A stretch of 64,000 bases of DNA from an uncultured virus (IMG/VR IMGVR_UViG_3300049793_000365) (taxonomy: Duplodnaviria; Heunggongvirae; Uroviricota; Caudoviricetes): IMG/VR virus record IMGVR_UViG_3300049793_000365; one strand, written 5' to 3'. The first letter of the stretch is position 1, and every line of letters begins with the position of its first letter. Position numbers and translations under genes: made by a program. Of this stretch, positions 1 through 60,936 are shown one piece after another. The notes beneath the pieces were generated by a model that saw only the letters and a list, made by a program, of their open reading frames with translations, was not told the origin of the DNA and made no database searches.

Positions 1-128
1 CAGAATTAGAACCAGTTAAACACGAAATGATGAAGTGGGTTAATTCTAAACCAATTATTAATGGTGATGAATTTATCAATAAATGTATTGAGTTAGGAGC
101 AGAAGAAGATTCAATCGATTATAACTAA
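1..128 (+). CDS. 3' end of a hypothetical protein (partial)
   Basis: Open frame from position 3 (ELEPVKHEMMKW...SIDYN) to TAA at 126-128. Confidence 0.6.
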   Translation, partial: ELEPVKHEMMKWVNSKPIINGDEFINKCIELGAEEDSIDYN

Positions 129-406
129 TTCCAGCAGATATTGAATTCTTTCAATTTCTTATTGCGAAGCATCGTCATTAAATAGTATTCTATCTCTTCT
201 GTGTTATCAGCTATTTCGATTACTACACCAGACATGATATAAATAAGCTTAGGTGAACTATTTTCACGAAAGTATATATCATCATCACCATCACGATAAA
301 CCCAGTCACCGGCTGATACCTCACATGGGTCATATACAGAACAGTACTTCGATTCAACGAGTTGTTTGAACCCGATAGATTTTAATATTTTAACAATGTC
401 CGACAT
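125..406 (-). CDS. hypothetical protein, C-terminal RDxKI-type tag
   Basis: Ends RNKKLKEFNICWN; last of a tight minus-strand run. Confidence 0.7.
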   Translation of the reverse strand: MSDIVKILKSIGFKQLVESKYCSVYDPCEVSAGDWVYRDGDDDIYFRENSSPKLIYIMSGVVIEIADNTEEIEYYLMTMLRNKKLKEFNICWN

Positions 407-751
407 TTAGTTTACAATAATACTAATTTGTTCGTTACGATGTGCAGATATATCTAAAAAATATTTGTGAAATAAATGAACACTGTTAATATCCCATAAG
501 ATTGGTAGCTTACCAGCTAGTATGTCAGCCTCTTGCTTTCTATCGAAATCATTGACCATTCCTTCCCAATCTGCTGGATTATCTAACTTAAGAAAGTAGT
601 CAGGAAAGTTACCAACAGATACCCAACAACTTGTGTATTTCGTGTGGATATCTTCTTGTTTATCATCAGATGCTATCAGATAAGAATAATTCTCACCAAC
701 TAAAAAGGAAACACCATAACCATCAAACTGTTTTATACATCTACAAGTCAT
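407..751 (-). CDS. hypothetical protein, CxCIK...FxxYF family, tagged
   Basis: CRCIKQF...FLVGENYSY...FHKYFLDISAHRNEQISII. Confidence 0.75.
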   Translation of the reverse strand: MTCRCIKQFDGYGVSFLVGENYSYLIASDDKQEDIHTKYTSCWVSVGNFPDYFLKLDNPADWEGMVNDFDRKQEADILAGKLPILWDINSVHLFHKYFLDISAHRNEQISIIVN

Positions 752-990
752 AATATAGAGTTTATTTTCTCATCCCTGTGACAAGACATACATAGATTAT
801 CTCTATCTCTACAATCTACACAAGCAGTAAAATAATGCTTACAGTCATTACATTCACAAGTTCGAGTAACACCTTCCTTATTACAGAAAATACACACAGG
901 TTCTACCCTATTAATCGATATGATAGTATCACATGATTTTAGCTTATTCATAGAATCGCGTATTGATTCCGAAAAGGTAGACAACAACAT
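748..990 (-). CDS. small Cys-rich (zinc-finger-like) protein, tagged
   Basis: Several CxxC pairs; ends RDEKINSIL. Confidence 0.7.
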   Translation of the reverse strand: MLLSTFSESIRDSMNKLKSCDTIISINRVEPVCIFCNKEGVTRTCECNDCKHYFTACVDCRDRDNLCMSCHRDEKINSIL

Positions 991-1184
991 TACGCGAGAA
1001 CAGATTTGATTTTCTTATCTCTCATAGCTATTTTACCACATAGTAGTTTTACTACGTCACCTGGTATTTTTTCATTCTTCTCGCAGTAGTCATGTAACTC
1101 TTCGAGTGTGATTATAGATTCACCTTGGTATATTAAATTGTGATTATCATCAATTGTGATACCTTCCATTCCAAATAGTCCCAT
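990..1184 (-). CDS. hypothetical protein, tagged
   Basis: Ends RDKKIKSVLA. Confidence 0.7.
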   Translation of the reverse strand: MGLFGMEGITIDDNHNLIYQGESIITLEELHDYCEKNEKIPGDVVKLLCGKIAMRDKKIKSVLA

Positions 1185-1189
1185 ATTTA

Positions 1190-1501
1190 TTAGTTTATTA
1201 GTTCGTCTAACTGTATGTTGCGATACTCAATAACATCCATGAAGCGATATTTAAAATTATCATGTGATAGTCTAACCAAACCACAATCGCTATTAGGATC
1301 TAATAGAAGCTCATCTATTGACTTATAATATGTATAATACTCACCTTCTTCGAATACGACAGTAGATGATTGTGTATCGGTATGATATGACCGAATACAA
1401 ACACATTTGCTTTCTATTAACTGTTGTTGCATCACTAATTTATAGTTAAGTTGTCCTGAAAGGTTGGTTCTGTATAGTGAAATTAATAGACTGTGTATCA
1501 A
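1190..1501 (-). CDS. hypothetical protein, CxCIK...FxxYF family, tagged (true start probably further downstream)
   Basis: CVCIRSY...FEEGEYYTY...FKYRFMDVIEYRNIQLDELIN. Confidence 0.7.
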   Translation of the reverse strand: MIHSLLISLYRTNLSGQLNYKLVMQQQLIESKCVCIRSYHTDTQSSTVVFEEGEYYTYYKSIDELLLDPNSDCGLVRLSHDNFKYRFMDVIEYRNIQLDELIN

Positions 1502-1564
1502 TGACTTATTTTAATAGAATGTTATTAACATAAATTTTAACACTTAAATCCATATATTTGGACT

Positions 1565-1759
1565 ATGAGAGATTATTTTAAAAGATTAAGACATCACCCA
1601 GGATTAACAATTGCTACATTAATGACAATTGTTGGGTTTTTAGCAGGAGCTTCTAACAAACACATGAATTTTTGGAGCGGTGGTATAATGGGATTAATTG
1701 TAATGGGTGGATTTTGTTGGACACTTGTGTTGCTATCTAATATCAAAAGAAAAGGATGA
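1565..1759 (+). CDS. small two-TM membrane protein
   Basis: Two hydrophobic segments; TATATTTG 4 nt upstream of ATG. Confidence 0.75.
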   Translation: MRDYFKRLRHHPGLTIATLMTIVGFLAGASNKHMNFWSGGIMGLIVMGGFCWTLVLLSNIKRKG

Positions 1760-2142: not shown

Positions 2143-2426
2143 GACCAAAACCACTAAAACAATATGCTGAGTATTTAAGAATTAATATAGAGAGATACAT
2201 TGAAGACTTCGAATATAACATACACCACTCAAGCTTAACAGAGTATGTTAAATCTGGTGAGATATCTGGTAACCTATATCTCGGAACATCACGAGAAACT
2301 AAGATAGCATTTTTCAATTATTATAAAACTGAGATAGAAATACAGACCCGTGTTTCTCTTATGACATTTGAAGAATTTTACTCACAATTAAAAAGAGACA
2401 ATAAAATAAACAGCATTATTAAATAA
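2139..2426 (+). CDS. hypothetical protein, tagged
   Basis: ATGA coupling; ends RDNKINSIIK. Confidence 0.75.
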   Translation: MRPKPLKQYAEYLRINIERYIEDFEYNIHHSSLTEYVKSGEISGNLYLGTSRETKIAFFNYYKTEIEIQTRVSLMTFEEFYSQLKRDNKINSIIK

Positions 2427-2443: not shown

Positions 2444-2704
2444 ATGAAAAAGAAATATCGATATCAGAAATATGCGTATGACATGGACACCGTTAAGTCT
2501 GGTGATATCATTCCAATTATGTGCGACCATTCTACGTGTAATCGATTCTTAGTTGCTAAACTATTGGATCCACACATCGGTATTTGTTATGTACCAGTTT
2601 ATAAATCTAATTTTGATATGCGTAATCAGTCTTGGAAATGTTTCCAACATAGAATTGATGAAGCTACTAAGCGCGATAATAAAATTAAAAAAATCCTTAA
2701 GTAA
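2444..2704 (+). CDS. hypothetical protein, tagged
   Basis: TACATTTG just upstream; ends RDNKIKKILK. Confidence 0.75.
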   Translation: MKKKYRYQKYAYDMDTVKSGDIIPIMCDHSTCNRFLVAKLLDPHIGICYVPVYKSNFDMRNQSWKCFQHRIDEATKRDNKIKKILK

Positions 2705-3354: not shown

Positions 3355-3830
3355 CACAAGAAAGAGTCGATGATATAAATGAGTGGATAAAGAAAGTCGC
3401 TGAAATAAACAGCGATACTGTTTCTTTATCTGTTGATGGTGATCCTTTTACTAAATGGGATAGGGAAAGTTATACCACTGTTGTTTATGTAAATGGTGAG
3501 AAGAAAAGAGACCTTACACACAGAGACACACCATCAATTAGGTTACATAGAATAAATTCAATCATGAAGGCTTGGGGATTGACACTTAACAGTATATCGG
3601 GTTGGAATAATGGTAAATTCCAGTGGGCTGGTTCTGGTATCTATACACATATTGAAATGAATACATTTCACACTGATTTATTTAAAATTGGTGATAGTGA
3701 ATGGATAACATTTCACGAGCGATTAATAGAAGATTGGATTGACGAACACATAGTTGAGAAATCTAAACAAAGTGGTAGTAAAGAAATTGAGCGAGAAATA
3801 AAAATAAGGTCTATTGTAAAACAGTGCTAA
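3351..3830 (+). CDS. hypothetical protein, tagged
   Basis: Ends REIKIRSIVKQC. Confidence 0.75.
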   Translation: MTQERVDDINEWIKKVAEINSDTVSLSVDGDPFTKWDRESYTTVVYVNGEKKRDLTHRDTPSIRLHRINSIMKAWGLTLNSISGWNNGKFQWAGSGIYTHIEMNTFHTDLFKIGDSEWITFHERLIEDWIDEHIVEKSKQSGSKEIEREIKIRSIVKQC

Positions 3831-4102
3831 GTGAAACACAAATAGCAGTAAGGTGGTATATGCAATTACCAACACATAGACAAATAAGAGTTTGTGTTAG
3901 GATGGGTTACACTGATTTTAACTCGCGTATAAGAAGTGAGCAGAATGACAAGGCTTTTATGAAATGGGTAGCTGAGAACCACAAGGTTGATACACTAATA
4001 GAAATATCAAAAGACGTTGATGCGTCTAATGATGAAATCAAAGAGAGAGTAAGACATCGTAAACTTAATAAATTAACAGATGAGGGAAATACACAGAACT
4101 AG
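3824..4102 (+). CDS. hypothetical protein, tagged
   Basis: RHRKLNKLT near C-terminus. Confidence 0.65.
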   Translation: MLSETQIAVRWYMQLPTHRQIRVCVRMGYTDFNSRIRSEQNDKAFMKWVAENHKVDTLIEISKDVDASNDEIKERVRHRKLNKLTDEGNTQN

Positions 4103-4319
4103 ATTCGGATCTATAATTCACGAACATGGTTACTTTGTTGTGTTATGGAATCGCAATAGAGAACATCGTGAGTTTAGAACACTACACGAAGCTGAAGACT
4201 TTTTACACTACATATGTGACAGATATGAAAAAGAAAGGTATGAAAGTGCGTATGTAAAATCACCAGAACAAATAAAACAGGAAAACCGAAGTAACGCTCT
4301 TGATAAACTACTAGGATGA
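4080..4319 (+). CDS. hypothetical protein, tagged
   Basis: Ends RSNALDKLLG. Confidence 0.7.
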   Translation: MREIHRTRFGSIIHEHGYFVVLWNRNREHREFRTLHEAEDFLHYICDRYEKERYESAYVKSPEQIKQENRSNALDKLLG

Positions 4320-5157: not shown

Positions 5158-5519
5158 TAACCAAGAACTTTATTTAGTTTAGTATCTCGCGTCAGTCTTA
5201 ATTCTCGGTAGTTATACTCAGTGGGTGAGTTCTGATTATATTGTATCGAAACACATTCACCATTTACACTGAATACGTTGTAGGTGATGAAGCTATTCTC
5301 TTTGAATATCTTAACCTCGTCACCAATTTCGAATGGAAAATGAACCAACTCATCGAGTGATGTTCTCTGTGCTGTTTCTTGTAACATACCATTCTTGTGA
5401 TAGTTTACAAACGCATTTTCCTCCTGCATTGATTTCACAACACCTACTTCACAATCTTTGTGATACGTGTCTTTATTAGAATGGCGCGGTACATATATTA
5501 CTGAGTCTCCTGGTTTCAT
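5157..5519 (-). CDS. hypothetical protein, tagged
   Basis: Ends RDTKLNKVLG. Confidence 0.75.
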   Translation of the reverse strand: MKPGDSVIYVPRHSNKDTYHKDCEVGVVKSMQEENAFVNYHKNGMLQETAQRTSLDELVHFPFEIGDEVKIFKENSFITYNVFSVNGECVSIQYNQNSPTEYNYRELRLTRDTKLNKVLG

Positions 5520-5800: not shown

Positions 5801-6038
5801 TGAGCAAATCTTCACACTTTGAATCTCTATCCATTTTTTTAAACTCAGAGACATACTTATTGAAAACCGCATCAGATGGCTTTTTTTCAAAATATATTAG
5901 CTTCTCCTTTCGGTTACCAAATATGCGTTGTAGAAATTTATTTTTGCGTGGCTTAGTTCGTATGATAACAAACTCTTCATGACCTGGATCTGGATAACCT
6001 TGGTCTACTATTACAGATTCAATTGAATATTCCATCAT
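5793..6038 (-). CDS. hypothetical protein, tagged
   Basis: TATATTTG upstream; ends RDSKCEDLLNE. Confidence 0.7.
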   Translation of the reverse strand: MMEYSIESVIVDQGYPDPGHEEFVIIRTKPRKNKFLQRIFGNRKEKLIYFEKKPSDAVFNKYVSEFKKMDRDSKCEDLLNE

Positions 6039-9815: not shown

Positions 9816-10841
9816 ATGACACACGGACTCGCAATAGATAGATTATACAGACACCCTAAATATGGTATAGTTAGAGTGAAAGATGTAGTAGGTGATGCAA
9901 CATTCATCGAATATTATGTATTCAACACAACTGGTGTTCGAATCACACCAAATTTCAAATCAGTAAATCATAAACATCTTGTTATACACGATACCATTGT
10001 CGGTGAGACTATGTATGATGTTAATACAATGAAGTCTGTTGTTATATTGGATGAGATTGGTAACACAATCACCGTCAGAGATAAGCAAGACAGAGAGTAT
10101 ATAGTTGACTTCTGTTGTTTAGTACCAACATATCGTGAGTGCGTTGAGACAAACCTTCAAAACAAAAGCAGAAACGAAGAGATTGTTAAACTCCTTAAAA
10201 AAGGAAGTAGGTTGTCTGATTTAGCTAATAGATTTTCACTCGATGTATCAGTTGTTCAAACAATCGCAAGAAGCTTTGGTCTTGAACTCAACACAAAACT
10301 CAGTGATGAATCGAGAGATAGAATAAAGCAAGCAAAATCTTTCGTCAATACATTGTCTTATGATGAAATAAAGGCTAAATTTAGCCTCACTGATGATGTT
10401 ATGGTTATGTCTGGTTTGAAAGATAAGTTAGAGCGACAGAAAGAGGTTGCTAAGATACTTGCTATGTATAAAGAGAATTATACACTGAAGGAAATTGCCG
10501 ATTTTTTTGATTGTTGTTCTGATAGAATATCTAAAATCATCAGAGTAAATAATGCTTATAAAATCCCTTCCCTTAAAATGTCTATCGCTGATAAGAAGAA
10601 ATTCTCCGATAATATTAAATCAATCATTACCGAAAAATTCAACACTGGTCTAAGTGACGATGATATTGCGTATGATATGAATGAAGAGGGTCACAAAACA
10701 TTATTCGGTACCGAGTTTACAGCGACTCACGTTAGGAAAATAACGAAAGATATACCAGTTAATAAACCAGTTAAGAAAGTAGTAGTCAAAGAAAAGGATT
10801 ACCTATCATTATACATTAAAAGTAAAAGAGTAAAAGCATGA
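9816..10841 (+). CDS. multi-HTH DNA-binding protein, paralogue of the next gene
   Basis: YRHPKYGIVRV; HTH-like LSDLANRFSLD and YTLKEIADFFD; IAYDMNEEGHKTLFGTEFT. Confidence 0.6.
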   Translation: MTHGLAIDRLYRHPKYGIVRVKDVVGDATFIEYYVFNTTGVRITPNFKSVNHKHLVIHDTIVGETMYDVNTMKSVVILDEIGNTITVRDKQDREYIVDFCCLVPTYRECVETNLQNKSRNEEIVKLLKKGSRLSDLANRFSLDVSVVQTIARSFGLELNTKLSDESRDRIKQAKSFVNTLSYDEIKAKFSLTDDVMVMSGLKDKLERQKEVAKILAMYKENYTLKEIADFFDCCSDRISKIIRVNNAYKIPSLKMSIADKKKFSDNIKSIITEKFNTGLSDDDIAYDMNEEGHKTLFGTEFTATHVRKITKDIPVNKPVKKVVVKEKDYLSLYIKSKRVKA

Positions 10842-12286
10842 GAAGCACATTGAGTAATAAGAAAAAGATGGCTTGTGTGAGCTATTTAAATGAAATGTTG
10901 AAGCACATTCGCAACAAAGAACAATTGTCTAAAGTTTCTAAAGAAGTTGGTAAGAAATACGGTGTTAGCCATGATTTAATATACTATGCTCAATTTGTTG
11001 GTTATATTAAAAGAGTTGGTAAGGGTGAATATAAATCTAACGTGGGTAGGTTTCACAAACGCGATGTTGATACAATCTACGCATATCGTACCGATAGGTT
11101 AAGTAAGGATAAAAAAGCAAGAGAAAGTAGTACGCAATTATCACTATTCAAAAAGAAAGTTGTTGTAAGTAATATCGTAGAGGGTAAGGAATATAAGCAC
11201 CCAAAACATGGCTTGGTTAAAGTTGATGAAATCATATCCGATTCTTTAGCATATGTTTTGGTACCAATTAGTTCCGATACACATCCTAAGTACACTCTTC
11301 ACGAGGTTCGTTCTAATTTACTATCCGCTGTTGCTGGTAGTACTACAGTTAAAAAAGAAAAGCCAAGTAAAGAAATTTTAAATCTTGGTGTTAGAGCAAG
11401 AAATTGTTTAAAATCAGCGAACATAAATACGGCTGAGGAACTATCAATGTTTACTGAATCACAGATATCCAATGTTCCAAATACTGGTAGAAAAACAATC
11501 GATGAATTAGAAAAGTTTCTACAATCAAAGGGTTTAAAATTCAGTACCGAACCAATCAATGAGCCATTAATCTCTGATAGAGATAAGCAAATTATTGAGT
11601 GTATAAATAATAAAGAAAAGGTAGATGATATTGCCGCAAAATTCGATGTACACAAATCAAGTATAAGTAATATTGCTAAGAAACACGGCATTAGTATTGG
11701 ATCACTTAGAAAGAAGGAGAGAAGTGATTTATTATCAGAACTTAAATCAGAACTTAAAAATGGTATGAGTAAAGCTGATGCTGAACTTAAATATAAAAAA
11801 TATCCAAAGTTTATTAAGTTCATAAGAGCGTATTTCATCACATTTAATAATAAGAAGAGAATCGCAGACCGCAACAACAAAATCGTAAGTTTATATAAAG
11901 AGGATTATACACTTAAGAATATAAGTGAATTAACCGACCTTGGTGTACCTACAATCGCTGCTATTATTCGTGATAATAAAGCATACAAATTTCCGGAAAT
12001 GAGCATATCTATACCGGAAAAGAAGAAGAGAACCGAAGAGTTATTCGAATACGTATCTTCACTTAAGAGTCAATATAAAATGACTGCTCAACAAATAGCT
12101 GAGGAACTTAATGAGAATGGTTATAAGACATTAAGAGGTACTGAATACACCGTTGGTAATGTAACAAATATGTTTTATAAAGCTAATAACGGTCTTATTG
12201 AAACAACAACCAAAAAGTCACCTAAGAAGGTAGCTAAGAAGACAGATGATTATTTGAGTTCATATATAAAGAAGTTCAAAAAGTAA
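10838..12286 (+). CDS. multi-HTH protein with an RNA polymerase alpha-CTD-like domain
   Basis: LNLGVRARNCLKSANINTAEELSMFTESQISNVPNTGRKTIDELEKFLQSKGLKF matches the RpoA CTD pattern; several HTH-like segments. Confidence 0.8.
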   Translation: MRSTLSNKKKMACVSYLNEMLKHIRNKEQLSKVSKEVGKKYGVSHDLIYYAQFVGYIKRVGKGEYKSNVGRFHKRDVDTIYAYRTDRLSKDKKARESSTQLSLFKKKVVVSNIVEGKEYKHPKHGLVKVDEIISDSLAYVLVPISSDTHPKYTLHEVRSNLLSAVAGSTTVKKEKPSKEILNLGVRARNCLKSANINTAEELSMFTESQISNVPNTGRKTIDELEKFLQSKGLKFSTEPINEPLISDRDKQIIECINNKEKVDDIAAKFDVHKSSISNIAKKHGISIGSLRKKERSDLLSELKSELKNGMSKADAELKYKKYPKFIKFIRAYFITFNNKKRIADRNNKIVSLYKEDYTLKNISELTDLGVPTIAAIIRDNKAYKFPEMSISIPEKKKRTEELFEYVSSLKSQYKMTAQQIAEELNENGYKTLRGTEYTVGNVTNMFYKANNGLIETTTKKSPKKVAKKTDDYLSSYIKKFKK

Positions 12287-16297: not shown

Positions 16298-16537
16298 ATG
16301 ATAGCAATGTGTACCAAAACAATCCACGTATCAGTTGGTGGAATTGGTGTCTACGATAAAACCGAAACATTTACAAACAATGAAATATATGAGTGCATAC
16401 GTAGTATGCGTGGTGGTACTGTTGTTGTAAAGAAGGAAAATAGACAGATAAAAGTAGATAGCCAAACTTTCGATACTCACTTCACTTCGATAGAAGAGAT
16501 AAGAGACGAGAAGCTAAACGCATTACTTACTTCTTAA
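16298..16537 (+). CDS. hypothetical protein, CxCIK...FxxYF family, tagged
   Basis: FDTHFTSIEEIRDEKLNALL. Confidence 0.7.
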   Translation: MIAMCTKTIHVSVGGIGVYDKTETFTNNEIYECIRSMRGGTVVVKKENRQIKVDSQTFDTHFTSIEEIRDEKLNALLTS

Positions 16538-43049: not shown

Positions 43050-43071
43050 TGTATAAATTACTTTTAATAAA

Positions 43072-48509: not shown

Positions 48510-48753
48510 TTTCAAAGAATATCTTGCCTACGTGGATTACCTATTTGAGTTCAATCCCACACTACCAATTGTTTCTATCGATAGAAACTCAAACAGCACT
48601 GATATATCTAACATGATGTTTAAAGCTGGTGTAGCTTTGGGTAAGACTGTGAAGTATTTAAAGGAAAATAATATTAAAAAAGAACCATTGGTTCTTGATT
48701 CATTTCTATCGATGTATAGACGTGATAGTAAAATAAGCGATATTATCGATTAG
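48502..48753 (+). CDS. hypothetical protein, tagged
   Basis: Ends RDSKISDIID. Confidence 0.7.
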   Translation: MINFKEYLAYVDYLFEFNPTLPIVSIDRNSNSTDISNMMFKAGVALGKTVKYLKENNIKKEPLVLDSFLSMYRRDSKISDIID

Positions 48754-50506: not shown

Positions 50507-51004
50507 ATGAAAATACAGTTAAAAATGATAGGTCCTTGTCAAGCAAAGCTTGGTGCTGTTAAAGCACTTAAGGAATTTACTGGGTTTGGTTTAAAAGAAG
50601 CAAAGGATTTCATCGATTCTATGTGTCACGACTTTGATAGACAGGGTAGTAGTATTCGACCTATACATTTAAGAGGTTCTAATTTTGAGAATCAGATAAA
50701 AATTCATAGCTTTAGGAATGATATTGGTTCTGGATTTGTTGTACTCGACCAAGAACACGAGAGACACATGAAATTGATGTCTTTGGGTTTAGCAAATGAG
50801 TCTGATTTGGCAACTGGTATCTCTGAGTTACTTGGGTTTGCTTGTTACAATAAAAGTATTGATGATATAGAATCTGAATTAGCAGAGGTATTTACTGGTC
50901 TGAACAAGGAAGACTTGGAGCGAATATATAATCAGTTATTAAAAAAATTTAGAACTGGTAATGACGAAGATACCTCTGGACAAGAAACCATTTCAACCTG
51001 GTGA
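50507..51004 (+). CDS. protein with N-terminal ribosomal bL12 (L7/L12) CTD-like domain
   Basis: IQLKMIG..AKLGAVKALKEFTGFGLKEAKDFID. Confidence 0.8.
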   Translation: MKIQLKMIGPCQAKLGAVKALKEFTGFGLKEAKDFIDSMCHDFDRQGSSIRPIHLRGSNFENQIKIHSFRNDIGSGFVVLDQEHERHMKLMSLGLANESDLATGISELLGFACYNKSIDDIESELAEVFTGLNKEDLERIYNQLLKKFRTGNDEDTSGQETISTW

Positions 51005-51197
51005 AATTGTAGCACATAAATATCACGCTGATAAATATTTCATAGTTGTCAGAAATCAATTAGATGGTAGTTATGTTGTTAAGGATGTGGACTTCTCACT
51101 ATATGTCTCTTCGAATGAGTTTGTTTTTATGGAGGAATATCTACAAACGAAACAAGAGCGCAGAAACGATAGAATTGATGATTTATTAAATGAATAG
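50961..51197 (+). CDS. hypothetical protein, tagged
   Basis: Ends RNDRIDDLLNE. Confidence 0.7.
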   Translation: MTKIPLDKKPFQPGEIVAHKYHADKYFIVVRNQLDGSYVVKDVDFSLYVSSNEFVFMEEYLQTKQERRNDRIDDLLNE

Positions 51198-51543
51198 CTT
51201 CAAAACAATATGTCATAATAATAAATTCAGTAAGATTGTAAATCTTAATGGAAGAAAGGTTATTGACACTTCTTATCTATCATTGAAAACTACCGATGGT
51301 GAACATATTCGCGTTGTTGAGGGTAAAGAATATGATGTTACAATAGCTGAGAATGATGGTATAAAATATTTCGTTATAAGTGAACCATATATTGACTCAG
51401 ATGGAAGTATTACGCAAGCATCAGTGACATTATTGGATAGTACAATTGAAATAATTGGTAAACACACTGAAAGAAATTTCATGTCATTTTTCTATACACC
51501 TGACCAATTACGAGATAGTAAGATTAATACACTACTTACTTAA
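51190..51543 (+). CDS. hypothetical protein, tagged
   Basis: FKTICHNNKF...FFYTPDQLRDSKINTLLT. Confidence 0.75.
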   Translation: MNSFKTICHNNKFSKIVNLNGRKVIDTSYLSLKTTDGEHIRVVEGKEYDVTIAENDGIKYFVISEPYIDSDGSITQASVTLLDSTIEIIGKHTERNFMSFFYTPDQLRDSKINTLLT

Positions 51544-54009: not shown

Positions 54010-54410
54010 AATTTACAAAAGAAGAAATAGAAGAATTTGAATCTACGTTAGGTGATTTGGGCTATCGTAAGATGAAGGGTCATTATCGCAATGAAGATTA
54101 TGCCTGGTGGAAATCTTTTGATATAACGTATGATAGTTATGGTGATAAAAAAGTAGGCTATCAAATAGCGTTGCTTGTTTTTGACTTCAGTAAATATCCA
54201 AATTTCACAGATTCATATATTGGTGTTCAGTTTGAAATGATAACCAGTGAAAATAAAGTAAGTCGTGTTGATTTGAGCTTATCTGATGATAATATGACTG
54301 TCACTGAGTTCGAAGATTTTTGTGCTGATATGTATTCACACATAAACAACTTTTTTAGTCAAGATAGTATTAGAGATAGAAAAATTAAAAGAATAAATGC
54401 TAACGGTTAA
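54006..54410 (+). CDS. hypothetical protein, tagged (start moved to MKFTK)
   Basis: RDRKIKRIN. Confidence 0.7.
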   Translation: MKFTKEEIEEFESTLGDLGYRKMKGHYRNEDYAWWKSFDITYDSYGDKKVGYQIALLVFDFSKYPNFTDSYIGVQFEMITSENKVSRVDLSLSDDNMTVTEFEDFCADMYSHINNFFSQDSIRDRKIKRINANG

Positions 54411-54672: not shown

Positions 54673-54884
54673 AACCAGATAGAATAGGCGTTCATCAAAC
54701 ACATTGTTGTATAATACATGGTTGTAAATATGGTAACAAAGATTGCCCTGTTGTATTGGGAGAGATTGACCAGACATATTTATGTGAAGACTGTAGTTGG
54801 TCTTCTAAGAGTGAATTAGAAATTAAGGCTTGGGATAAAGTCAAACAAGTAAAGCGCAAATTACAATTAAACAAATTAATATAA
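54666..54884 (+). CDS. small Cys/His-rich protein, tagged
   Basis: HCCIIHGCKYG..DCPV...CEDC; RKLQLNKLI. Confidence 0.7.
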   Translation: MVEPDRIGVHQTHCCIIHGCKYGNKDCPVVLGEIDQTYLCEDCSWSSKSELEIKAWDKVKQVKRKLQLNKLI

Positions 54885-54885
54885 G

Positions 54886-55296
54886 ATGTTATTATATAAC
54901 GCAATTAAAACTCCGGATGGTACTATCTTGGTATCTAAAAGTAGACACGACTACGTAACACATGAAGATAAAAATGGATTCTTCTATGCTGTTGATGGTG
55001 GTAGCGAATATGCTAAACGTTCCACTTCAACAAACGCTCCACCATACGAGGAATTATCTGTTTATGATGATGGTGATTTTGAAAAAAGACGCAAGTATTT
55101 TGTTTGGGGAAGTAGATATGATAAAGAAGGTGTTCCATTAGACAAACTTATTATGAGACCCATAATGGAATTAGATACAGACCATATAGAAGCCATATTA
55201 AGAACACAGACTCAAATTAATGAAATGTATAAAGATACTTTCGAAAAAGAATTGAGGTGGAGAAAGCGTGACGAGACTATAGATACTATTCTTTAA
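54886..55296 (+). CDS. phage hypothetical protein, tagged
   Basis: NAIKTPDG...SRHDY...AVDGG; ends RDETIDTIL. Confidence 0.75.
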   Translation: MLLYNAIKTPDGTILVSKSRHDYVTHEDKNGFFYAVDGGSEYAKRSTSTNAPPYEELSVYDDGDFEKRRKYFVWGSRYDKEGVPLDKLIMRPIMELDTDHIEAILRTQTQINEMYKDTFEKELRWRKRDETIDTIL

Positions 55297-55930
55297 GAAG
55301 ATTATTTATCTTTCTATTTCTTAGTCCTTCTTTTATTATTTTTATAACTTCTTCTTGGTATTTTGGTTTACCGTAGCCTTTAGTTTTGATTTCATCATTA
55401 GATACGTAAGCATATTTCTTACGACCTTCGAAGACTATCATTTCAACTATATCAAAGTCATACACTAAATCAATATCTAACATATCGTAGTCCTTATTTG
55501 CGAAATATATTGTATCAGTATCGATGTATAGTATATTACTTTCGTTTTTCTGTATCAACTCATCATAGAATTGATACATATATTGTGATATGAGACCAAT
55601 TATTCTATATGATTTCTCATTACCCAGTTTTGAAAATATACTATTTACATATTTCTTCAATTCTAAATAAGTATTTATTTCATTTTTCTTAAGTGTTCCG
55701 CGATTATCGATAAAGTACTGGATCTTCTCATATATCTCTTGTGGTATATCTATGTGGTCTAAGAAGGAATTATCTCTTAGCTTTAAAATAATGCTTGGAT
55801 ATAAACATACGAAGGTAACCTCATATGCTTGTTCTAATAATATACCTTTAGTGAATGGATTTAACCAATCATAGCCACCCATGTGATTACCACTATGTAT
55901 ATCTATATTTTTAGCATAGCGTTCTATCAT
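55286..55930 (-). CDS. miniature family-B DNA polymerase-like protein (palm/fingers only), tagged
   Basis: TFVCLYPSII (motif A, Asp absent), KKYVNSIF (B), YIDTDT (C), KKYAY, KTKG; ends RNRKINNLLKE. Confidence 0.75.
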   Translation of the reverse strand: MIERYAKNIDIHSGNHMGGYDWLNPFTKGILLEQAYEVTFVCLYPSIILKLRDNSFLDHIDIPQEIYEKIQYFIDNRGTLKKNEINTYLELKKYVNSIFSKLGNEKSYRIIGLISQYMYQFYDELIQKNESNILYIDTDTIYFANKDYDMLDIDLVYDFDIVEMIVFEGRKKYAYVSNDEIKTKGYGKPKYQEEVIKIIKEGLRNRKINNLLKE

Positions 55931-56310
55931 TCTACGATGCTACTAATTTTAGTATCTCTAATTCCGGTTGGACTATTTCTATCAATCTTATCTATCCAGC
56001 TATAAATTACTGCCGCGAGTTGAACAAGCTCTTCTCTTCGTTCTGTATCATTTCTACATGATATGACCTCAGCTAGTTCTTCTACGGCTATATGTGACCA
56101 GGTAACTTGATTTCTCTGTGATGCGAGTTCACACATTAACCTTGCCCTTGTTTCTGTTGGGATTTCATATTCTTCACACATTCTATCTGGTGAACATCCG
56201 CCCTTTCTGGACATAAGTATATTATCTACTGATGGGTGATTCTGTAATCCCCATTTAAGTATCTGATTTTCATACTCTTGTAAAATATCGTTGATAATTT
56301 GATTTTCCAT
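55927..56310 (-). CDS. MazG-like nucleotide pyrophosphohydrolase, tagged
   Basis: IAVEELAEV...REELVQLAAV; RDTKISSIV. Confidence 0.65.
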   Translation of the reverse strand: MENQIINDILQEYENQILKWGLQNHPSVDNILMSRKGGCSPDRMCEEYEIPTETRARLMCELASQRNQVTWSHIAVEELAEVISCRNDTERREELVQLAAVIYSWIDKIDRNSPTGIRDTKISSIVE

Positions 56311-56380: not shown

Positions 56381-56800
56381 ATGGTAATAAAAGGCTTCAA
56401 CACAAGAGAAAGTAGAACTCTTACATTCCGAATGGGTGACCCATCAATGGATGTTGACTCACATGGTAATCCAGTGGATAATAATTATATCGTAATTATA
56501 AATCGCAAAGATTGTAAATACGTTGTTAAAAACGGTACGAAATACATAGACTCAAAGGGTGTTAAACAAGCAGTTGTGTTGGGTTATGGTGGTACTTTTT
56601 ATGGATATGGTGTGAAGACTCTAAAGAAGAGTAAATACCCAAAATACATCAAAACAAAATTTGATGGTAGAATGGTTACTGAGTGGTATGAGAGTAGATT
56701 TTATGCTGTTAAAGACGGTAGAGTTTATACAACAACTCAGAGAAGCTTTGTGTCACTTGATGTGCAAAGAGAATCAAGATTAGAGGAACTATTAACATGA
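56381..56800 (+). CDS. hypothetical protein, tagged
   Basis: TTTG-N20-TATATTTG (56345-56376); RESRLEELL. Confidence 0.75.
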   Translation: MVIKGFNTRESRTLTFRMGDPSMDVDSHGNPVDNNYIVIINRKDCKYVVKNGTKYIDSKGVKQAVVLGYGGTFYGYGVKTLKKSKYPKYIKTKFDGRMVTEWYESRFYAVKDGRVYTTTQRSFVSLDVQRESRLEELLT

Positions 56801-57138
56801 ACATAGGAGACTTAGTAGTAGTAACCAGAGAATTTATTAATTGTAAAGCTGATTCAATCGGTATCATATATGATAAATATGACACTGATTGTGTTTCTAT
56901 CTTAATTGTAGATAATGGTGTAGACCTTGGTGGATTTTCAGCAGAAGATGTTGAAAAATATGTAATGCATACTGGTATCACTATCAAGTATTATACTGAC
57001 TATAAATTCCAATCAGTTATTAAGTTAAACACTGACTATTCTAATGGTTATTTTGATATGGCTAATGGTGTTGTTGAGAATATGGGTAAAATGTTAATAA
57101 GAGAAGCTAAACTTCGTAAGATTGGAGTTAATAACTAA
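56797..57138 (+). CDS. hypothetical protein, tagged
   Basis: REAKLRKIG. Confidence 0.7.
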   Translation: MNIGDLVVVTREFINCKADSIGIIYDKYDTDCVSILIVDNGVDLGGFSAEDVEKYVMHTGITIKYYTDYKFQSVIKLNTDYSNGYFDMANGVVENMGKMLIREAKLRKIGVNN

Positions 57139-58046: not shown

Positions 58047-58604
58047 ATGATTCCCGAAATTAAAACCATGCAACGCGACCTTAAGTTAGGTCAGATATCA
58101 GGGTCAAATGTTATCACACTTGACACTAAAGGACTTCCATCTGGATTATATTTCTGGTGGAAAAAACGAAAGATAATAAAGTCACTCTTGAAAAAGGGTT
58201 ATATATTGTCTGGTTCACGAGCATTGAAATGTTATCGTGTAAATGGTAATGAAGTTTTAAATAGAGAAGCTAGAGATTGGGACTTTTTGGTAACGAAGGA
58301 TCAGTTTATGGATATCTGTAAAGAACAAGGGATATATGACTTTGATTTCAATGCCAAGTCTTATCAAATAAACAAACATCTGATGGCGTTTGCTAATTCA
58401 TATTCAAGTGATACTATTATTGTACCTACTAACATTGAGCTATTCATTAAAGATACACTACCTGATTATGTTGAACATGATGGTATTAGATTCGCTAAGT
58501 TATCTGATATAATTGATGCTAAAATGGACTTAATGGGCAGAGATTCTAAGCATAAATTAGATTTGAATAATATTTATGTTAACGTACACGGTAATGACCT
58601 TTGA
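58047..58604 (+). CDS. Pol-beta-superfamily nucleotidyltransferase-like protein, N-terminal tag
   Basis: ILSGSRAL...RDWDFLV...KHKLD; RDLKLGQI at aa 10-17. Confidence 0.6.
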   Translation: MIPEIKTMQRDLKLGQISGSNVITLDTKGLPSGLYFWWKKRKIIKSLLKKGYILSGSRALKCYRVNGNEVLNREARDWDFLVTKDQFMDICKEQGIYDFDFNAKSYQINKHLMAFANSYSSDTIIVPTNIELFIKDTLPDYVEHDGIRFAKLSDIIDAKMDLMGRDSKHKLDLNNIYVNVHGNDL

Positions 58605-58863: not shown

Positions 58864-59174
58864 CATTCTTAATATCCATATTTTTTAACTATATAAGTCA
58901 GTTCAAATGGTATCTTGATTCTGTTATATGGTTGTTCATACGACTATTAGAAGGTGTTACTGGTTTAATAGTTGGTGTAATAGCAATTATACTCGCGATT
59001 GGTTGGGTTGTGTTATTGGGTTCAGCTATTATTCTAATTATTTGTGTAGTACTCTCACCTAAATTAATAGCAAACTATTATGATTGTGGGTACTATAACT
59101 TTTTATTTATATTAAGCGTTCCAATTGGATTATTTTTAGCTTTCTGTCTAACAGAGTATCTTGAGAATAAATGA
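58860..59174 (+). CDS. multi-TM membrane protein
   Basis: Largely hydrophobic. Confidence 0.65.
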   Translation: MTFLISIFFNYISQFKWYLDSVIWLFIRLLEGVTGLIVGVIAIILAIGWVVLLGSAIILIICVVLSPKLIANYYDCGYYNFLFILSVPIGLFLAFCLTEYLENK

Positions 59175-59449
59175 AACTAAGAAAGAAGAAATATCATCTA
59201 CCACCGGATGGCTATCTATCAGATGGTTCACAGCATTACTATAAGATAGCAAATGGTAAAATTATACACATTGTTAATAGTAAAAAATCGCCATTGATTA
59301 ATATTTTATATGATATCAATAGTGATAATCTACGTAATCTGTATAAAATAGATGCTGAGTTATTCGACATTATGTTGAGAGAAGCTATTATTAATTTGGG
59401 ATTGCTTAATGAAATAAGGGATATAAATATTAACGAAATTTTAAAATAA
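59171..59449 (+). CDS. hypothetical protein, tagged
   Basis: Ends RDININEILK. Confidence 0.7.
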   Translation: MKLRKKKYHLPPDGYLSDGSQHYYKIANGKIIHIVNSKKSPLINILYDINSDNLRNLYKIDAELFDIMLREAIINLGLLNEIRDININEILK

Positions 59450-59454
59450 AAATT

Positions 59455-59898
59455 ATGTTTTTTTACGAAGTAGGTTACACGTCATATGAAGAAGCACCAA
59501 TGTACACATTGATGTCTTCTAAGGAATATACACAAGAAGAATTCGATACATTGGTTGCTGACTGTATGATTGAAGTGTACTATATAAAATCAGCAGAGTG
59601 GAAAAAAAGACTCGAAGAGGAAGGTTATGTTAAACCAGTGATTGATGAAGATGATGATGAAGAAGAGTATGACCATTACTCTAAGGTTGATAATTTATTA
59701 ACAGATACAATTGAAGCTTTGGTTAGTAAACACGGATTCAGTGAGCCTGATTTTAAATGTAGATTTCAACCGTTTGGCTGGGGTTCTATTAAAAATGTTG
59801 AAGACTGGAAAGGACAAACTGATAGTCAGTTAGATTTTATTCGTGAGCGTTTCAGAATAAATAAGAGAGACAATGATATCGATAACATTAGTAAATGA
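59455..59898 (+). CDS. acidic hypothetical protein, tagged
   Basis: Ends RDNDIDNISK. Confidence 0.7.
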   Translation: MFFYEVGYTSYEEAPMYTLMSSKEYTQEEFDTLVADCMIEVYYIKSAEWKKRLEEEGYVKPVIDEDDDEEEYDHYSKVDNLLTDTIEALVSKHGFSEPDFKCRFQPFGWGSIKNVEDWKGQTDSQLDFIRERFRINKRDNDIDNISK

Positions 59899-60143
59899 GA
59901 CTAAAAGTAGGCGATATTCTATATGTAAGAAAAGAAGGTACCATCCATTCAGATATACCCTTTGAAGTAATTCAAGTCAGAAGTAAAACAAGATTTGATG
60001 GTGATGATATCGCAATCAAATGGGTAGATGGTCATAATTGGTGGTGGGGTCAGATAGGAGAAACAGAACCTTGGACACTTATGTTTATGAGTGAATCAGA
60101 ATACAACAGAAATAAAAAAATTAATGAGTTGATTAAACTTTAG
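59895..60143 (+). CDS. hypothetical protein, tagged
   Basis: Ends RNKKINELIKL. Confidence 0.7.
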   Translation: MRLKVGDILYVRKEGTIHSDIPFEVIQVRSKTRFDGDDIAIKWVDGHNWWWGQIGETEPWTLMFMSESEYNRNKKINELIKL

Positions 60144-60396
60144 GTGGCTTTTGACCTTCGTTAAATAACTTCTCCATAGCTTTTAGTCTACGCAACCAAA
60201 TATAAGAACAAACCATCCATACAATAGATAAGAAAGTCTCATTGGATATGACATTGATGAACGCAAGCAATAGTGCTAACATTATAAGCAGTTTAGCTCT
60301 TTTTATTTTCTTAGCTAAGTCTTGTATATTACCATCGGTAACCATGAGTATCATCAATACAACAAGTACAATAATTTTAAAAGCGAATAAATCCAT
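60133..60396 (-). CDS. three-TM membrane protein (start moved)
   Basis: TATATTTG 4 nt before ATG. Confidence 0.65.
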   Translation of the reverse strand: MDLFAFKIIVLVVLMILMVTDGNIQDLAKKIKRAKLLIMLALLLAFINVISNETFLSIVWMVCSYIWLRRLKAMEKLFNEGQKPPKV

Positions 60397-60432
60397 AGCA
60401 CAAATATACACAATTTTATATTAAGTCCAAAA

Positions 60433-60936
60433 ATGATTAATAATTATATTTACCTAATCCATCATAAGTTGGATAAAAGCAAATTAAAACTTTTATTCAT
60501 GATATTATTAATATCACCTATGTCACTCATTTCATTATGTGATGGTAAAACATCTATGTTAATATGTGTTACTTTTTTAGTATTAGTGACATTACCCGTA
60601 ACACTATCGAGAATGACATACATAACTGGTTCACTTAAATTCAATAAGAATCTTTATGGTGCTTTACCAAGAGTAGGTGATGTATATGTGATGGCTAAGA
60701 ATACTATCTTCGATGATGATAATGGCTTCTTTTGGCAAGTATCTAAAAATAGTGAAATAAAAGTAACATTAATACCGGATGATAATAAAGAATACCCTAC
60801 TGAATACTTTTTCTTTTGTGAGATTAATGGTGTAATACGAGTTATTGATTTCATTAAGTTTAGAAGCAGACTTATAGATAAGTCTGATTATAGAAATTCT
60901 AAACTAAAAAAACTCGGACGAAAATTTGGATATTAG
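60433..60936 (+). CDS. two-TM membrane protein, tagged
   Basis: RNSKLKKLG. Confidence 0.7.
   Translation: MINNYIYLIHHKLDKSKLKLLFMILLISPMSLISLCDGKTSMLICVTFLVLVTLPVTLSRMTYITGSLKFNKNLYGALPRVGDVYVMAKNTIFDDDNGFFWQVSKNSEIKVTLIPDDNKEYPTEYFFFCEINGVIRVIDFIKFRSRLIDKSDYRNSKLKKLGRKFGY

Follow-up and report, generated by a model that had tools for sequence, protein, structure and literature searches.

Short address peptides are well known, among them the capsid-targeting sequence (CTS) of phage T4, adaptor tethers and clamp-binding tails. Here we describe a nine-residue C-terminal motif, in its strict form R-[DNE]-x-[KQR]-[IL]-x-x-[IL]-[LI], on many proteins encoded by a 64,000-nucleotide stretch of an uncultured virus of the Caudoviricetes (IMG/VR record IMGVR_UViG_3300049793_000365), the whole of which is called the window below. 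This motif, hereafter the tag, is a real, protein-level element that is portable, inherited and conserved throughout a clade of megaphages, and we infer that it works via a single receptor.

The T4 CTS, carried by IPI-III and Alt, is an N-terminal peptide of ~10 residues found on only a few proteins, and the prohead protease removes it by cutting after Glu. Among Clp adaptors, the XB tail of SspB (for ClpX) and MecA and Gp53 of phage SPO1 (for ClpC) bind the N-domain of the unfoldase. The ssrA degron is added by transfer-messenger RNA (tmRNA) and is an unstructured apolar end. Clamp clients include PCNA clients and the gp43, gp33 and gp55 tails of T4/RB69, and the PIP-box consensus is Q-x-x-[ILM]-x-x-[FY]-[FY]. 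Encapsulin cargo-loading peptides and microcompartment encapsulation peptides are short terminal helices sending unrelated cargo into a shell, which in encapsulins has the HK97 fold. Membrane helices of the MinD/FtsA type have a broad apolar face with aromatics and a basic rim, with no charge inside the face.

The tag fails at least one defining feature of each of these families, and thus is a short terminal address peptide but a member of no named family. Like the T4 CTS, it is a short portable peptide on unrelated, fast-evolving accessory proteins of a T4-type phage. Unlike the CTS, it is C-terminal (56 of 72 copies lie within 8 residues of the end), has another sequence, occurs on 17–37% of proteins and has no evident fixed cleavage site, with Glu at −2 in 12 and at −3 in 9 of 56 tags. 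As with Clp adaptors, a constant short element sits on variable proteins and Clp genes co-occur with it, but ClpC of tag-rich phages has no N-domain, the sequences differ and the carriers number in the hundreds. An ssrA-type degron was rejected, as no tmRNA was found in four megaphage records, and the tag is gene-encoded, predicted to be helical and trailed mostly by K, N or E.

The resemblance to clamp-binding tails extends to the 1-4-7-8 spacing, the many unrelated clients, the mostly extreme-end but sometimes N-terminal or internal position, and the presence of DNA enzymes among the carriers. On the other hand, of the 56 tags one has Gln at position 1, two have Phe at position 7 and none has an aromatic residue at position 8; moreover, an invariant Arg precedes, most carriers are ORFans and some are membrane proteins. 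A PIP-box identity was therefore rejected, since the residues fail the consensus though the spacing matches. Encapsulin and microcompartment peptides differ by their shell operon context, which is missing here, their motif and their far fewer carriers. MinD/FtsA-type helices differ in that the tag has three aliphatic positions, an Arg within the face, and D, N or E at position 1 in 50 of 56 cases. In the literature searched, including passages of PMC7162821, PMC7824862 and 10.1101/2025.02.27.640493, supplementary tables aside, neither this tail nor a similar proteome-wide tail is described. The statement of a first-pass annotation made from the letters alone, that it knew of no described equivalent, holds for this motif in that literature; functional analogues are well known.

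The tag was counted in 150 open reading frames (ORFs), which were our own calls by codon score and make 92% of the window coding (G+C 31–34%; short ORFs packed tightly on both strands). The strict pattern matches 26 times in this set. Only 0.13 matches on average (maximum 2) were found in 200 composition-preserving shuffles of each protein, and 2 in total in the five alternative frames of the called genes. A six-frame scan gave 28 matches, one of them spanning a stop codon, and 25 of the 27 valid ones end 0–6 residues before a stop. Thus the motif is nearly absent from shadow ORFs and shuffles, the controls that the first-pass annotation had proposed for its own claim.

An iterated nine-residue position-specific scoring matrix (PSSM) with a threshold of 10 bits found 72 copies in 71 of the 150 proteins, far above the shuffles (mean 1.6, maximum 5). 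The best score per protein drops from 10.5 to 6.9 bits after the 71st protein. Both the counts and this gap are partly circular, as the same proteins served to train the PSSM; independent measures are the strict pattern and a de novo expectation-maximization (EM) run on relatives. All seven examples quoted with the earlier manual count of about 70 ORFs lie at the C-termini of the ORFs given for them. The observation thus holds, and it is larger than earlier reported, extending from one window to a clade.

Copies within 8 residues of the stop codon, termed C-terminal here, occur in 56 of the 150 proteins (36 genes on the plus and 20 on the minus strand), and 15 more proteins carry the motif elsewhere. 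One trailing residue is commonest (24 of 72 copies), as 8, 9 and 6 copies have 0, 2 and 3, respectively; trailing residues are mostly K, N or E. Sixteen of the 72 copies are internal or N-terminal, including those in ORFs 12286 (N-terminal), 27553, 38470 and 42036 that had been pointed out before. Two of the 72 lie within the first 25 residues, and one further N-terminal family was found by alignment.

Arg occupies position 0 in 55 of the 56 C-terminal tags and D, N or E position 1 in 50, and acidic or amide residues dominate positions 1 and 5. An extended logo has K at −4 in 23 of 56, S or T at −5 in 19 of 56, and acidic or amide residues at −3 and −2. These residues before the Arg probably form a helix N-cap. 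The copies in the window are as follows, each with coordinates, strand, copy type and ORF (length in amino acids, aa), PSSM score, and number of residues left before the stop codon.

140..166, minus, C-terminal tag, ORF 125-406 (93 aa); 12.2 bits, 4
413..439, minus, C-terminal tag, ORF 407-751 (114 aa); 12.7 bits, 1
751..777, minus, C-terminal tag, ORF 748-990 (80 aa); 21.3 bits, 0
996..1022, minus, C-terminal tag, ORF 990-1184 (64 aa); 17.5 bits, 1
1196..1222, minus, C-terminal tag, ORF 1190-1501 (103 aa); 16.2 bits, 1
2394..2420, plus, C-terminal tag, ORF 2139-2426 (95 aa); 20.0 bits, 1
2672..2698, plus, C-terminal tag, ORF 2444-2704 (86 aa); 19.5 bits, 1
3540..3566, plus, weak internal copy, ORF 3351-3830 (159 aa); 10.3 bits, 87
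3792..3818, plus, C-terminal tag, ORF 3351-3830 (159 aa); 14.2 bits, 3
4052..4078, plus, C-terminal tag, ORF 3824-4102 (92 aa); 17.0 bits, 7
4287..4313, plus, C-terminal tag, ORF 4080-4319 (79 aa); 13.5 bits, 1
5163..5189, minus, C-terminal tag, ORF 5157-5519 (120 aa); 17.1 bits, 1
5802..5828, minus, C-terminal tag, ORF 5793-6038 (81 aa); 16.7 bits, 2
10170..10196, plus, internal copy, ORF 9816-10841 (341 aa, helix-turn-helix protein); 12.8 bits, 214
11870..11896, plus, internal copy, ORF 10838-12286 (482 aa, RNA polymerase alpha C-terminal domain/helix-turn-helix protein); 13.8 bits, 129
12316..12342, plus, N-terminal copy, residues 11-19 of ORF 12286-12687 (133 aa); 17.4 bits
12932..12958, plus, C-terminal tag, ORF 12671-12964 (97 aa); 19.1 bits, 1
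14962..14988, plus, C-terminal tag, ORF 14644-14991 (115 aa); 17.9 bits, 0
16502..16528, plus, C-terminal tag, ORF 16298-16537 (79 aa); 20.4 bits, 2
19233..19259, minus, C-terminal tag, ORF 19224-19625 (133 aa, DUF7736); 19.7 bits, 2
19645..19671, minus, C-terminal tag, ORF 19618-20055 (145 aa, one predicted transmembrane segment); 16.1 bits, 8
21119..21145, minus, C-terminal tag, ORF 21116-21430 (104 aa); 16.6 bits, 0
22421..22447, plus, near-C-terminal copy, ORF 22304-22486 (60 aa); 15.8 bits, 12
22762..22788, minus, C-terminal tag, ORF 22750-23061 (103 aa); 15.5 bits, 3
23345..23371, minus, C-terminal tag, ORF 23339-23623 (94 aa); 14.0 bits, 1
25495..25521, plus, internal copy, ORF 25015-25941 (308 aa); 15.8 bits, 139
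26420..26446, minus, C-terminal tag, ORF 26411-26710 (99 aa); 15.7 bits, 2
26710..26736, minus, C-terminal tag, ORF 26707-26973 (88 aa); 19.6 bits, 0
27235..27261, plus, weak near-C-terminal copy, ORF 26947-27297 (116 aa; weakest gene call); 10.5 bits, 11
27522..27548, plus, C-terminal tag, ORF 27276-27569 (97 aa); 19.8 bits, 6
28141..28167, plus, internal copy, ORF 27553-28302 (249 aa, nucleotidyltransferase-like), kept in the LR756502 orthologue; 18.9 bits, 44
29974..30000, minus, C-terminal tag, ORF 29968-30453 (161 aa; family A1, modelled); 16.5 bits, 1
30989..31015, plus, C-terminal tag, ORF 30593-31018 (141 aa); 19.0 bits, 0
31276..31302, plus, C-terminal tag, ORF 31015-31320 (101 aa); 17.1 bits, 5
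31622..31648, plus, C-terminal tag, ORF 31304-31666 (120 aa, two predicted transmembrane segments); 19.2 bits, 5
31689..31715, plus, N-terminal copy, ORF 31653-31859 (68 aa, CxxC protein); 15.6 bits, 47
32913..32939, plus, C-terminal tag, ORF 32445-32942 (165 aa); 15.9 bits, 0
34475..34501, plus, C-terminal tag, ORF 34154-34507 (117 aa); 17.3 bits, 1
35156..35182, plus, C-terminal tag, ORF 34922-35188 (88 aa); 18.3 bits, 1
36276..36302, minus, C-terminal tag, ORF 36270-36701 (143 aa); 13.7 bits, 1
38058..38084, plus, C-terminal tag, ORF 37629-38096 (155 aa); 14.8 bits, 3
38320..38346, plus, weak internal copy, ORF 38086-38433 (115 aa); 11.4 bits, 28
38812..38838, plus, internal copy, ORF 38470-39192 (240 aa); 14.7 bits, 117
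39465..39491, plus, weak C-terminal tag, ORF 39273-39497 (74 aa; the sole tag without Arg at position 0); 10.5 bits, 1
39673..39699, plus, C-terminal tag, ORF 39478-39714 (78 aa); 13.9 bits, 4
40523..40549, plus, C-terminal tag, ORF 40250-40561 (103 aa); 17.4 bits, 3
40755..40781, plus, internal copy, ORF 40548-40856 (102 aa); 14.1 bits, 24
41399..41425, plus, C-terminal tag, ORF 41237-41452 (71 aa); 15.3 bits, 8
42004..42030, plus, C-terminal tag, ORF 41791-42036 (81 aa); 18.5 bits, 1
42381..42407, plus, internal copy, ORF 42036-42557 (173 aa); 16.1 bits, 49
42560..42586, minus, C-terminal tag, ORF 42554-42775 (73 aa), gene end converging on ORF 42036-42557; 20.0 bits, 1
42777..42803, minus, C-terminal tag, ORF 42768-43100 (110 aa); 12.1 bits, 2
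44200..44226, plus, near-C-terminal copy, ORF 44101-44268 (55 aa); 18.8 bits, 13
44519..44545, plus, C-terminal tag, ORF 44213-44551 (112 aa); 14.7 bits, 1
48474..48500, plus, C-terminal tag, ORF 48171-48509 (112 aa); 15.0 bits, 2
48721..48747, plus, C-terminal tag, ORF 48502-48753 (83 aa); 17.6 bits, 1
50762..50788, plus, internal copy, ORF 50507-51004 (165 aa, like the L7/L12 C-terminal domain); 13.1 bits, 71
51162..51188, plus, C-terminal tag, ORF 50961-51197 (78 aa); 16.1 bits, 2
51511..51537, plus, C-terminal tag, ORF 51190-51543 (117 aa); 19.8 bits, 1
54372..54398, plus, C-terminal tag, ORF 53979-54410 (143 aa); 15.9 bits, 3
54855..54881, plus, C-terminal tag, ORF 54666-54884 (72 aa); 12.0 bits, 0
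55267..55293, plus, C-terminal tag, ORF 54886-55296 (136 aa, DUF7695-like); 14.9 bits, 0
55295..55321, minus, C-terminal tag, ORF 55286-55930 (214 aa, Y-x-D-T-D protein), converging on ORF 54886-55296; 20.4 bits, 2
55933..55959, minus, C-terminal tag, ORF 55927-56310 (127 aa); 15.7 bits, 1
56768..56794, plus, C-terminal tag, ORF 56381-56800 (139 aa); 15.1 bits, 1
57100..57126, plus, C-terminal tag (Gly variant), ORF 56797-57138 (113 aa); 13.3 bits, 3
58047..58604, plus, ORF with a nucleotidyltransferase-type G-S...D-x-D signature (by eye) and a conserved N-terminal tag-like stretch
58488-58514, plus, weak copy in ORF 58047-58604; 12.3 bits
58831..58857, plus, C-terminal tag, ORF 58576-58863 (95 aa); 16.8 bits, 1
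59417..59443, plus, C-terminal tag, ORF 59171-59449 (92 aa); 16.0 bits, 1
59866..59892, plus, C-terminal tag, ORF 59455-59898 (147 aa); 12.1 bits, 1
60108..60134, plus, C-terminal tag, ORF 59895-60143 (82 aa); 18.5 bits, 2
60892..60918, plus, C-terminal tag (Gly variant), ORF 60433-60936 (167 aa, two predicted transmembrane segments); 15.7 bits, 5

The source of the window is a T4-like megaphage. A protein search places the window's own protein on a 711,805-bp contig, and the best matches of a 443-residue window protein are uncultured phage records of 635–735 kb (LR756502, LR745206, LR756504 and LR756501/3). LR756502 has genes for a gp23-like capsid protein, a gp20-like portal and a T4-type terminase. 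According to passages of PMC7162821, a ‘Mahaphage’ clade takes in all genomes above 634 kb and has Bacteroidetes as predicted hosts. Only 25 of the 150 window proteins match LR756502, and a search for near-identical phage DNA returned no match to the window.

The tag occurs across this megaphage clade, as a search of related genomes, suggested earlier, found it again in four relatives. When relatives were scanned with the window PSSM for motifs within 8 residues of the end, tagged proteins numbered 163 of 949 in LR756502, 145 of 922 in LR745206, 65 of 899 in LR756504, 2 of 978 in LR756501, and 91 of 483 in a 344-kb IMG/VR contig (91% complete by its record) that was reached via a tagged family; shuffled tails gave 0.4–0.9 per genome. 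No tagged protein was found among 311 of Tenacibaculum phage PTm1 or 192 of Chryseobacterium phage MA9V-2 (160 of 218.5 kb scanned), both cultured jumbo phages whose capsid proteins are 25–27% identical to those of the tag-bearing clade, or in 50 kb scanned of Cellulophaga phage phi38:1. A profile of the 56 tails had no match at E ≤ 0.001 in 1.84 billion representative proteins, which is expected for so short a motif and is uninformative on its spread.

De novo EM on tails, not seeded with the window PSSM, recovered the same motif in ~199 of 731 tails of LR756502 and ~215 of 691 of LR756504, in the latter as the variant N-R-K-x-K-I-[ED]-[NE]-[LI]. In the 344-kb contig, 48 of 89 tails of the generic pattern end exactly in L-G-I, I-G-I, L-G-L or L-G-V. 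LR756501 has ~30 tails of a diverged form, K-N-x-K-R-T-x-L-[IM]-D-x-[MI]-L, as judged by eye. It also has a second, unrelated C-terminal tail, D-P-Y-G-E-E-x-W-[DENS], often after R-[IV]-F-[ST], on ~45 of its 978 proteins (40.9 sites among 678 tails by EM). Genes with this second tail often lie in arrays (loci L043-L079, e.g. 499–506 kb and 552–561 kb), and it was not seen in the window as far as looked. Tagged genes also cluster in arrays of small genes; in LR756502, the first full 20-kb bin has 20 of them among 53 genes and the last has 39 among 57.

Carriers are otherwise unrelated, as had been proposed. With their tails cut off, 54 of the 56 window carriers match no other window protein by BLAST (E 1e-3), and the 550 tagged bodies of the window and four relatives fall into 448 single-linkage BLAST families (E 1e-4), 356 of them singletons. 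This lack of BLAST similarity outside the tail speaks against a single paralogous family. The tag is inherited with the protein family. Multi-member families with a tagged protein number 92, of which 59 are tagged throughout and 33 mixed, and 464 more have no tagged member. Of the 25 pairs matched between the window and LR756502, 12 have the tag on both partners, 11 on neither and 2 on a single partner.

Pfam domains were found in window carriers (DUF7736 and a DUF7695-like domain) and in 3 of the 80 longest of the 163 LR756502 carriers scanned (riboflavin kinase, BtpA-like protein and DUF6011). A free C-terminus is not required, as was stated earlier, since internal and N-terminal copies are conserved in a helicase and two nucleotidyltransferase-type families. 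A DinG/XPD-like helicase has its copy at residue 246 in three genomes, the nucleotidyltransferase-like ORF 27553-28302 shares an internal copy with its LR756502 orthologue, and the family of ORF 58047-58604 keeps an N-terminal K-[ST]-[WYM]-x-R-[DEK]-x-x-[LI] in 4 orthologues. This last copy, reported in the first-pass annotation, falls below the PSSM threshold in the window, yet is conserved.

Several classes then assigned to the carriers were not confirmed. Pfam at E ≤ 0.01 finds neither a MazG nor a PolB family in the window, where a MazG-like protein and a mini-PolB had been named; ORF 55286-55930 shows by eye a Y-x-D-T-D stretch, which is a PolB hallmark. Where zinc fingers had been named, CxxC pairs are rare, occurring in 1 of 56 carriers. 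Of four membrane carriers, 19618, 31304 and 60433 do have predicted transmembrane segments by a simple hydropathy scan, but the tail of 44551 scores only 5.3 bits.

Selection on the tag is seen in 43 reciprocal-best pairs of LR756502 and LR745206 proteins with a tag on both partners. Their bodies share 37% identity and their nine motif residues 63%, compared with 76% for the capsid proteins of these two phages. Identity is 1.00 at R0, 0.86 at position 8, 0.72 at position 3, 0.67 at position 4 and 0.65 at position 7, and choosing both partners by PSSM inflates these key positions somewhat. The x positions 2, 5 and 6, which serve as an internal control, stay at body level (0.33–0.42). The family of ORF 29968-30453 (34 sequences, ~40% identity to the window protein) shows no variation at R, D and L of the tail. 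The tail is likewise kept in both homologues of ORF 55286-55930 (62–69% identity), a family of only 3 sequences.

The 34-sequence family was modelled by AlphaFold2 with a mean predicted local distance difference test score (pLDDT) of 66.8. Body residues 21–120 score 65–90, and the last 24 residues, 123–146, score below 50, drawn helical at 133–145 with no confident packing on the fold. In this one model, the tail looks as a tethered helix that folds on binding would look. On a helical wheel drawn from the logo, the apolar face consists of positions 4, 7 and 8, with Arg 0 within it and Lys 3 and Asp 1 at its sides. Of the amphipathic-helix address label proposed earlier, portability and a helix-type spacing are borne out, but the hub on which it was to dock was not found.

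We favor a docking function, in which one common receptor reads the tag as a portable short linear motif, and give this reading about an even chance. The tag would be a helix of ~13 residues, with an S/T N-cap, often K at −4, then R-[DNE]-x-[KQR]-[IL]-x-x-[IL]-[LI or G-I], 0–3 residues and the stop codon. It would hang flexibly off the folded bodies of hundreds of unrelated, fast-evolving, mostly small accessory proteins, and the Arg amid the aliphatic face (4, 7 and 8) would make it a plug for a groove in the common receptor rather than a membrane anchor. Should there be such a receptor, a host protein is a fair candidate short of an even chance, while a Clp-linked receptor and another phage protein are each possible at a lower, equal likelihood. 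Because the tag drifts between phage lineages, the receptor is more likely phage-encoded than a conserved host protein.

Our preferred, unproven candidate for the reader is the phages’ own proteostasis set, comprising a ClpC with a VGF loop and no N-domain, two ClpP, and DnaK/DnaJ/GrpE. Forty-two proteins of the 344-kb contig match all three tag-rich megaphages and have no match in the two tag-less cultured phages. Among the 40 of these scanned by Pfam (two span piece borders and were left out) are a ClpC-type unfoldase, two ClpP paralogues, DnaK, DnaJ and GrpE, as well as an ECF-type sigma factor, NusG, an S1 protein, RNA-repair enzymes and ~15 without any family. ClpC-like genes occur in LR756502, LR745206, LR756504, LR756501 and the 344-kb contig, and the ClpP paralogues are common to the four tag-rich genomes. 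The contig’s unfoldase is a true ClpC, whose best solved match, S. aureus ClpC (E 6e-214), aligns with it only from its residue 149. The phage unfoldase keeps G-V-G-F at the position of the loop, VGF in ClpC, that docks ClpP.

In the tag-rich genomes, ClpC begins with the first AAA module or shortly upstream of it and has no N-domain. Two Clp_N repeats are found only in LR756501, which is almost free of the canonical tag and has no BLAST match to either ClpP or to GrpE. The N-domain-less ClpC is present in at least 120 metagenome clusters (85–100% identical, 696–729 residues, contigs up to 344 kb), so the phage lineage is common. Jumbo phages with ClpP or ClpS (in parts of PMC7824862) and a phage protein acting as a ClpC adaptor (in parts of PMC6873191) have been published. 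In the Clp version of the docking reading, the tag may act as a degron, setting when accessory proteins are removed, or as a tether by which each small protein becomes an adaptor. The Clp co-occurrence is a weak lead and not evidence of binding.

A co-fold of the ClpC of the 344-kb-contig lineage (34-row alignment) with residues 91–160 of ORF 29968-30453, a partner from another phage lineage and without alignment, scored 0.00 in both runs, which neither supports the pairing nor counts against it. As for a sliding clamp as the hub, the Pfam gp45 N-domain model found nothing in five records and PHROGs named no clamp among 23 candidate proteins, with a clamp-loader-like AAA protein present. Fourteen conserved proteins are present in the tag-rich genomes and absent in LR756501. 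For two conserved proteins with a fitting presence/absence pattern, the ESM Atlas returned only unnamed viral clusters.

Several points weigh against a single common receptor and its Clp version. No receptor for the tag was found in this analysis, and 17–37% of all proteins is an unusual load for one receptor. The structural picture comes from one modelled family with the above mean pLDDT, and distant relationships among the many ORFan carriers would escape BLAST. The co-occurrence with Clp genes is drawn from seven genomes, including tag-less MA9V-2 with 160 of 218.5 kb scanned, and both phylogeny and genome size confound it. ClpC of tag-rich LR756504 starts directly at the first AAA module without the acidic N-terminal extension of the others, so this extension cannot be the general receptor. 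The four megaphage records yielded neither an McsB-type arginine kinase nor a tmRNA, so that two routes to a Clp degron fall away.

The main rival, which we consider unlikely, holds that the tag is for capsid cargo loading. The tail would dock accessory proteins on the prohead scaffold or shell to be packed and injected with DNA, as a C-terminal, expanded counterpart of the CTS. The T4-type head genes described above fit this, as does a prohead core scaffold/protease gene in annotated cultured relatives. According to parts of PMC3012670, T-even internal defence proteins are diverse and share only the CTS, which can load foreign proteins, and a head holds ~1000 internal protein molecules. The carriers are likewise diverse and fast-evolving, as seen from the 25 matches to LR756502. 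On the other hand, the tag is C-terminal rather than N-terminal, no conserved protease-type cleavage site precedes it, and 150–200 cargo species per genome would be unprecedented. Carriers include membrane proteins, and a helicase and nucleotidyltransferases with internal copies. The two cultured relatives of the same head type have no tag. A weaker objection, as promoter classes are inconsistent across genomes, is that many window carriers lie behind host-type −7 boxes rather than an identifiable late promoter.

Improbable in our view is a helix for self- or mutual association or for membrane binding, by which carriers would form oligomers, enter a shared assembly or lie on the inner membrane. 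The aliphatic residues are spaced i, i+3, i+4 as in an amphipathic helix, and the tail is predicted to be helical and unpacked on its own body. However, it has only three aliphatic positions and no aromatics, the near-invariant Arg stands mid apolar face, and acidic or amide residues predominate at positions 1 and 5. Furthermore, a zipper mixing more than 150 different proteins has no obvious use, and tagged proteins are not richer in transmembrane segments (5–9%, compared with 8–14% of untagged ones).

Still less probable is a relic of common descent, in which the carriers are one hyper-diverged paralogous family with only a C-terminal structural helix still recognizable. Most carriers are indeed ORFans of similar size (median 103–114 residues) and lie in arrays, such as the one at 620–640 kb of LR756502 (39 of 57 genes), and remote homology is invisible to BLAST. 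However, the tag occurs on different known folds (riboflavin kinase, BtpA-like, nucleotidyltransferase, helicase, DUF7736 and membrane proteins), so that several unrelated folds are already indicated for a minority of carriers. The copies are N-terminal, internal and C-terminal, the x positions evolve as fast as the bodies while key positions are frozen, and the modelled tail lies outside the confident fold.

Codon choice at the tag follows genome usage, indicating that selection acts on the protein, as the first-pass annotation had held from the varied codons. The Arg codons are AGA 26, CGC 11, CGA 8, CGT 6, AGG 3 and CGG 1 (n = 55), and synonymous codons at each motif position are near genome proportions. 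The tag also occurs at convergent gene ends, e.g. in ORFs 42554-42775 and 55286-55930, and therefore is not a signal for the downstream gene. A nucleic-acid or translation signal at gene ends (promoter, re-initiation region, termination context or RNA structure) that mimics a peptide motif has in its favor the A/T-rich codons of the consensus residues in a genome of 32% G+C and the many genes overlapping or abutting the next, but is close to refuted by this codon usage (26 of 55 Arg as CGN), the convergent, N-terminal and internal copies, a distance to the stop ranging over 0–8 residues, the same stop-codon usage in carriers and non-carriers, the near absence of strict matches in the other frames, and a peptide pattern kept in relatives with 26%, 29%, 31% and 37% G+C.

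Many window start codons are preceded by a Bacteroidota-type −7 box (TAnnTTTG, often C-C-[AG]-T-A-T-A-T-T-T-G) ending ~4–10 bases before them, so close that the genes seem nearly leaderless. Examples lie upstream of 2787, 5793-6038 (minus), 21116-21430 (minus), 34154, 36270-36701 (minus), 38470, 48171, 53878 and 56381, and several boxes form back-to-back divergent pairs. Other genes have upstream a second, A/T-alternating box (A-A-T-A-T-A-T-A), the most enriched upstream word in LR756502. Both boxes are enriched upstream of genes. With a permissive regular expression for the second box, the tagged fractions behind host-like and A/T boxes are 0.52 vs 0.29 in the window, 0.33 vs 0.12 in LR745206, 0.21 vs 0.18 in LR756502 and 0.04 vs 0.10 in LR756504. 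The link between tag and promoter thus appears in the window and one relative but not in two others. Because of this inconsistency and the permissive expression, we make no claim of timing, and the ‘early/middle’ label once given to the carriers is dropped.

Pfam names few window ORFs, among them two DNA methylases, a 2OG-Fe(II) oxygenase, an HD protein, DUF6717, DUF7736 and a protein with the RNA polymerase alpha C-terminal domain. The last is ORF 10838-12286 (plus; E 9e-15 for this clear domain), the larger of two adjacent paralogues. It is 26% identical over 389 residues to ORF 9816-10841 (plus), the pair having several helix-turn-helix matches and no counterpart found in LR756502. ORF 50507-51004 (plus, 165 residues) matches at its start part of the ribosomal L7/L12 C-terminal domain (E 3e-7) and has relatives in LR756502 and LR745206. 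A transfer RNA (tRNA) gene at 39183-39255 (plus) has the anticodon CTA, that of an amber suppressor, and was labelled ‘Pyl’ by ARAGORN; LR756501 has two CTA-anticodon tRNA genes side by side. The window itself reads well in code 11, at the coding density given above. IMG/VR gave no close relatives of the window nucleotidyltransferase, and no RNA dataset is listed as containing the window, the sole run containing it being a DNA run, which may be the source sample.

In keeping with a Bacteroidota host, LR756502 has genes for a TonB-dependent receptor-like protein and for two large proteins whose C-terminal domains are of the type IX secretion (CHU_C) kind, one with SprB repeats (L009:10953-13001, minus; L022:15688-18381, plus; L027:14378-19387, plus). 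It also has a PrkA and DUF444 pair, a Sir2-family protein and a microbial PARG-like protein (L015:13831-17139; L018:13843-14589; L020:1826-2563), and the NAD salvage genes NAMPT and NAD synthase.

The boldest form of the docking reading is a proteome-wide address code, in which one helical tail (two in some lineages) on 15–35% of proteins plugs hundreds of small proteins into the phage’s N-domain-less ClpC-ClpP, for scheduled destruction or as adaptors feeding host proteins to the protease. We rate this form as distinctly unlikely, below capsid loading and above an association or membrane helix. If true, the adaptor case would give bacterial viruses a counterpart to the F-box/PRANC strategy known from eukaryotic viruses. 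If the tag is an address label at all, between one sixth and one third of the proteome in the largest known phages would be organized by one peptide. Hundreds of unannotated proteins would become accessible through it, as one peptide could be used to fish out the receptor and sort the carriers, and it would be a ready-made portable tag for Bacteroidota-type systems. Together with the second tail on ~45 LR756501 proteins, it suggests that terminal peptide codes may be a general organizing principle of giant phage genomes.

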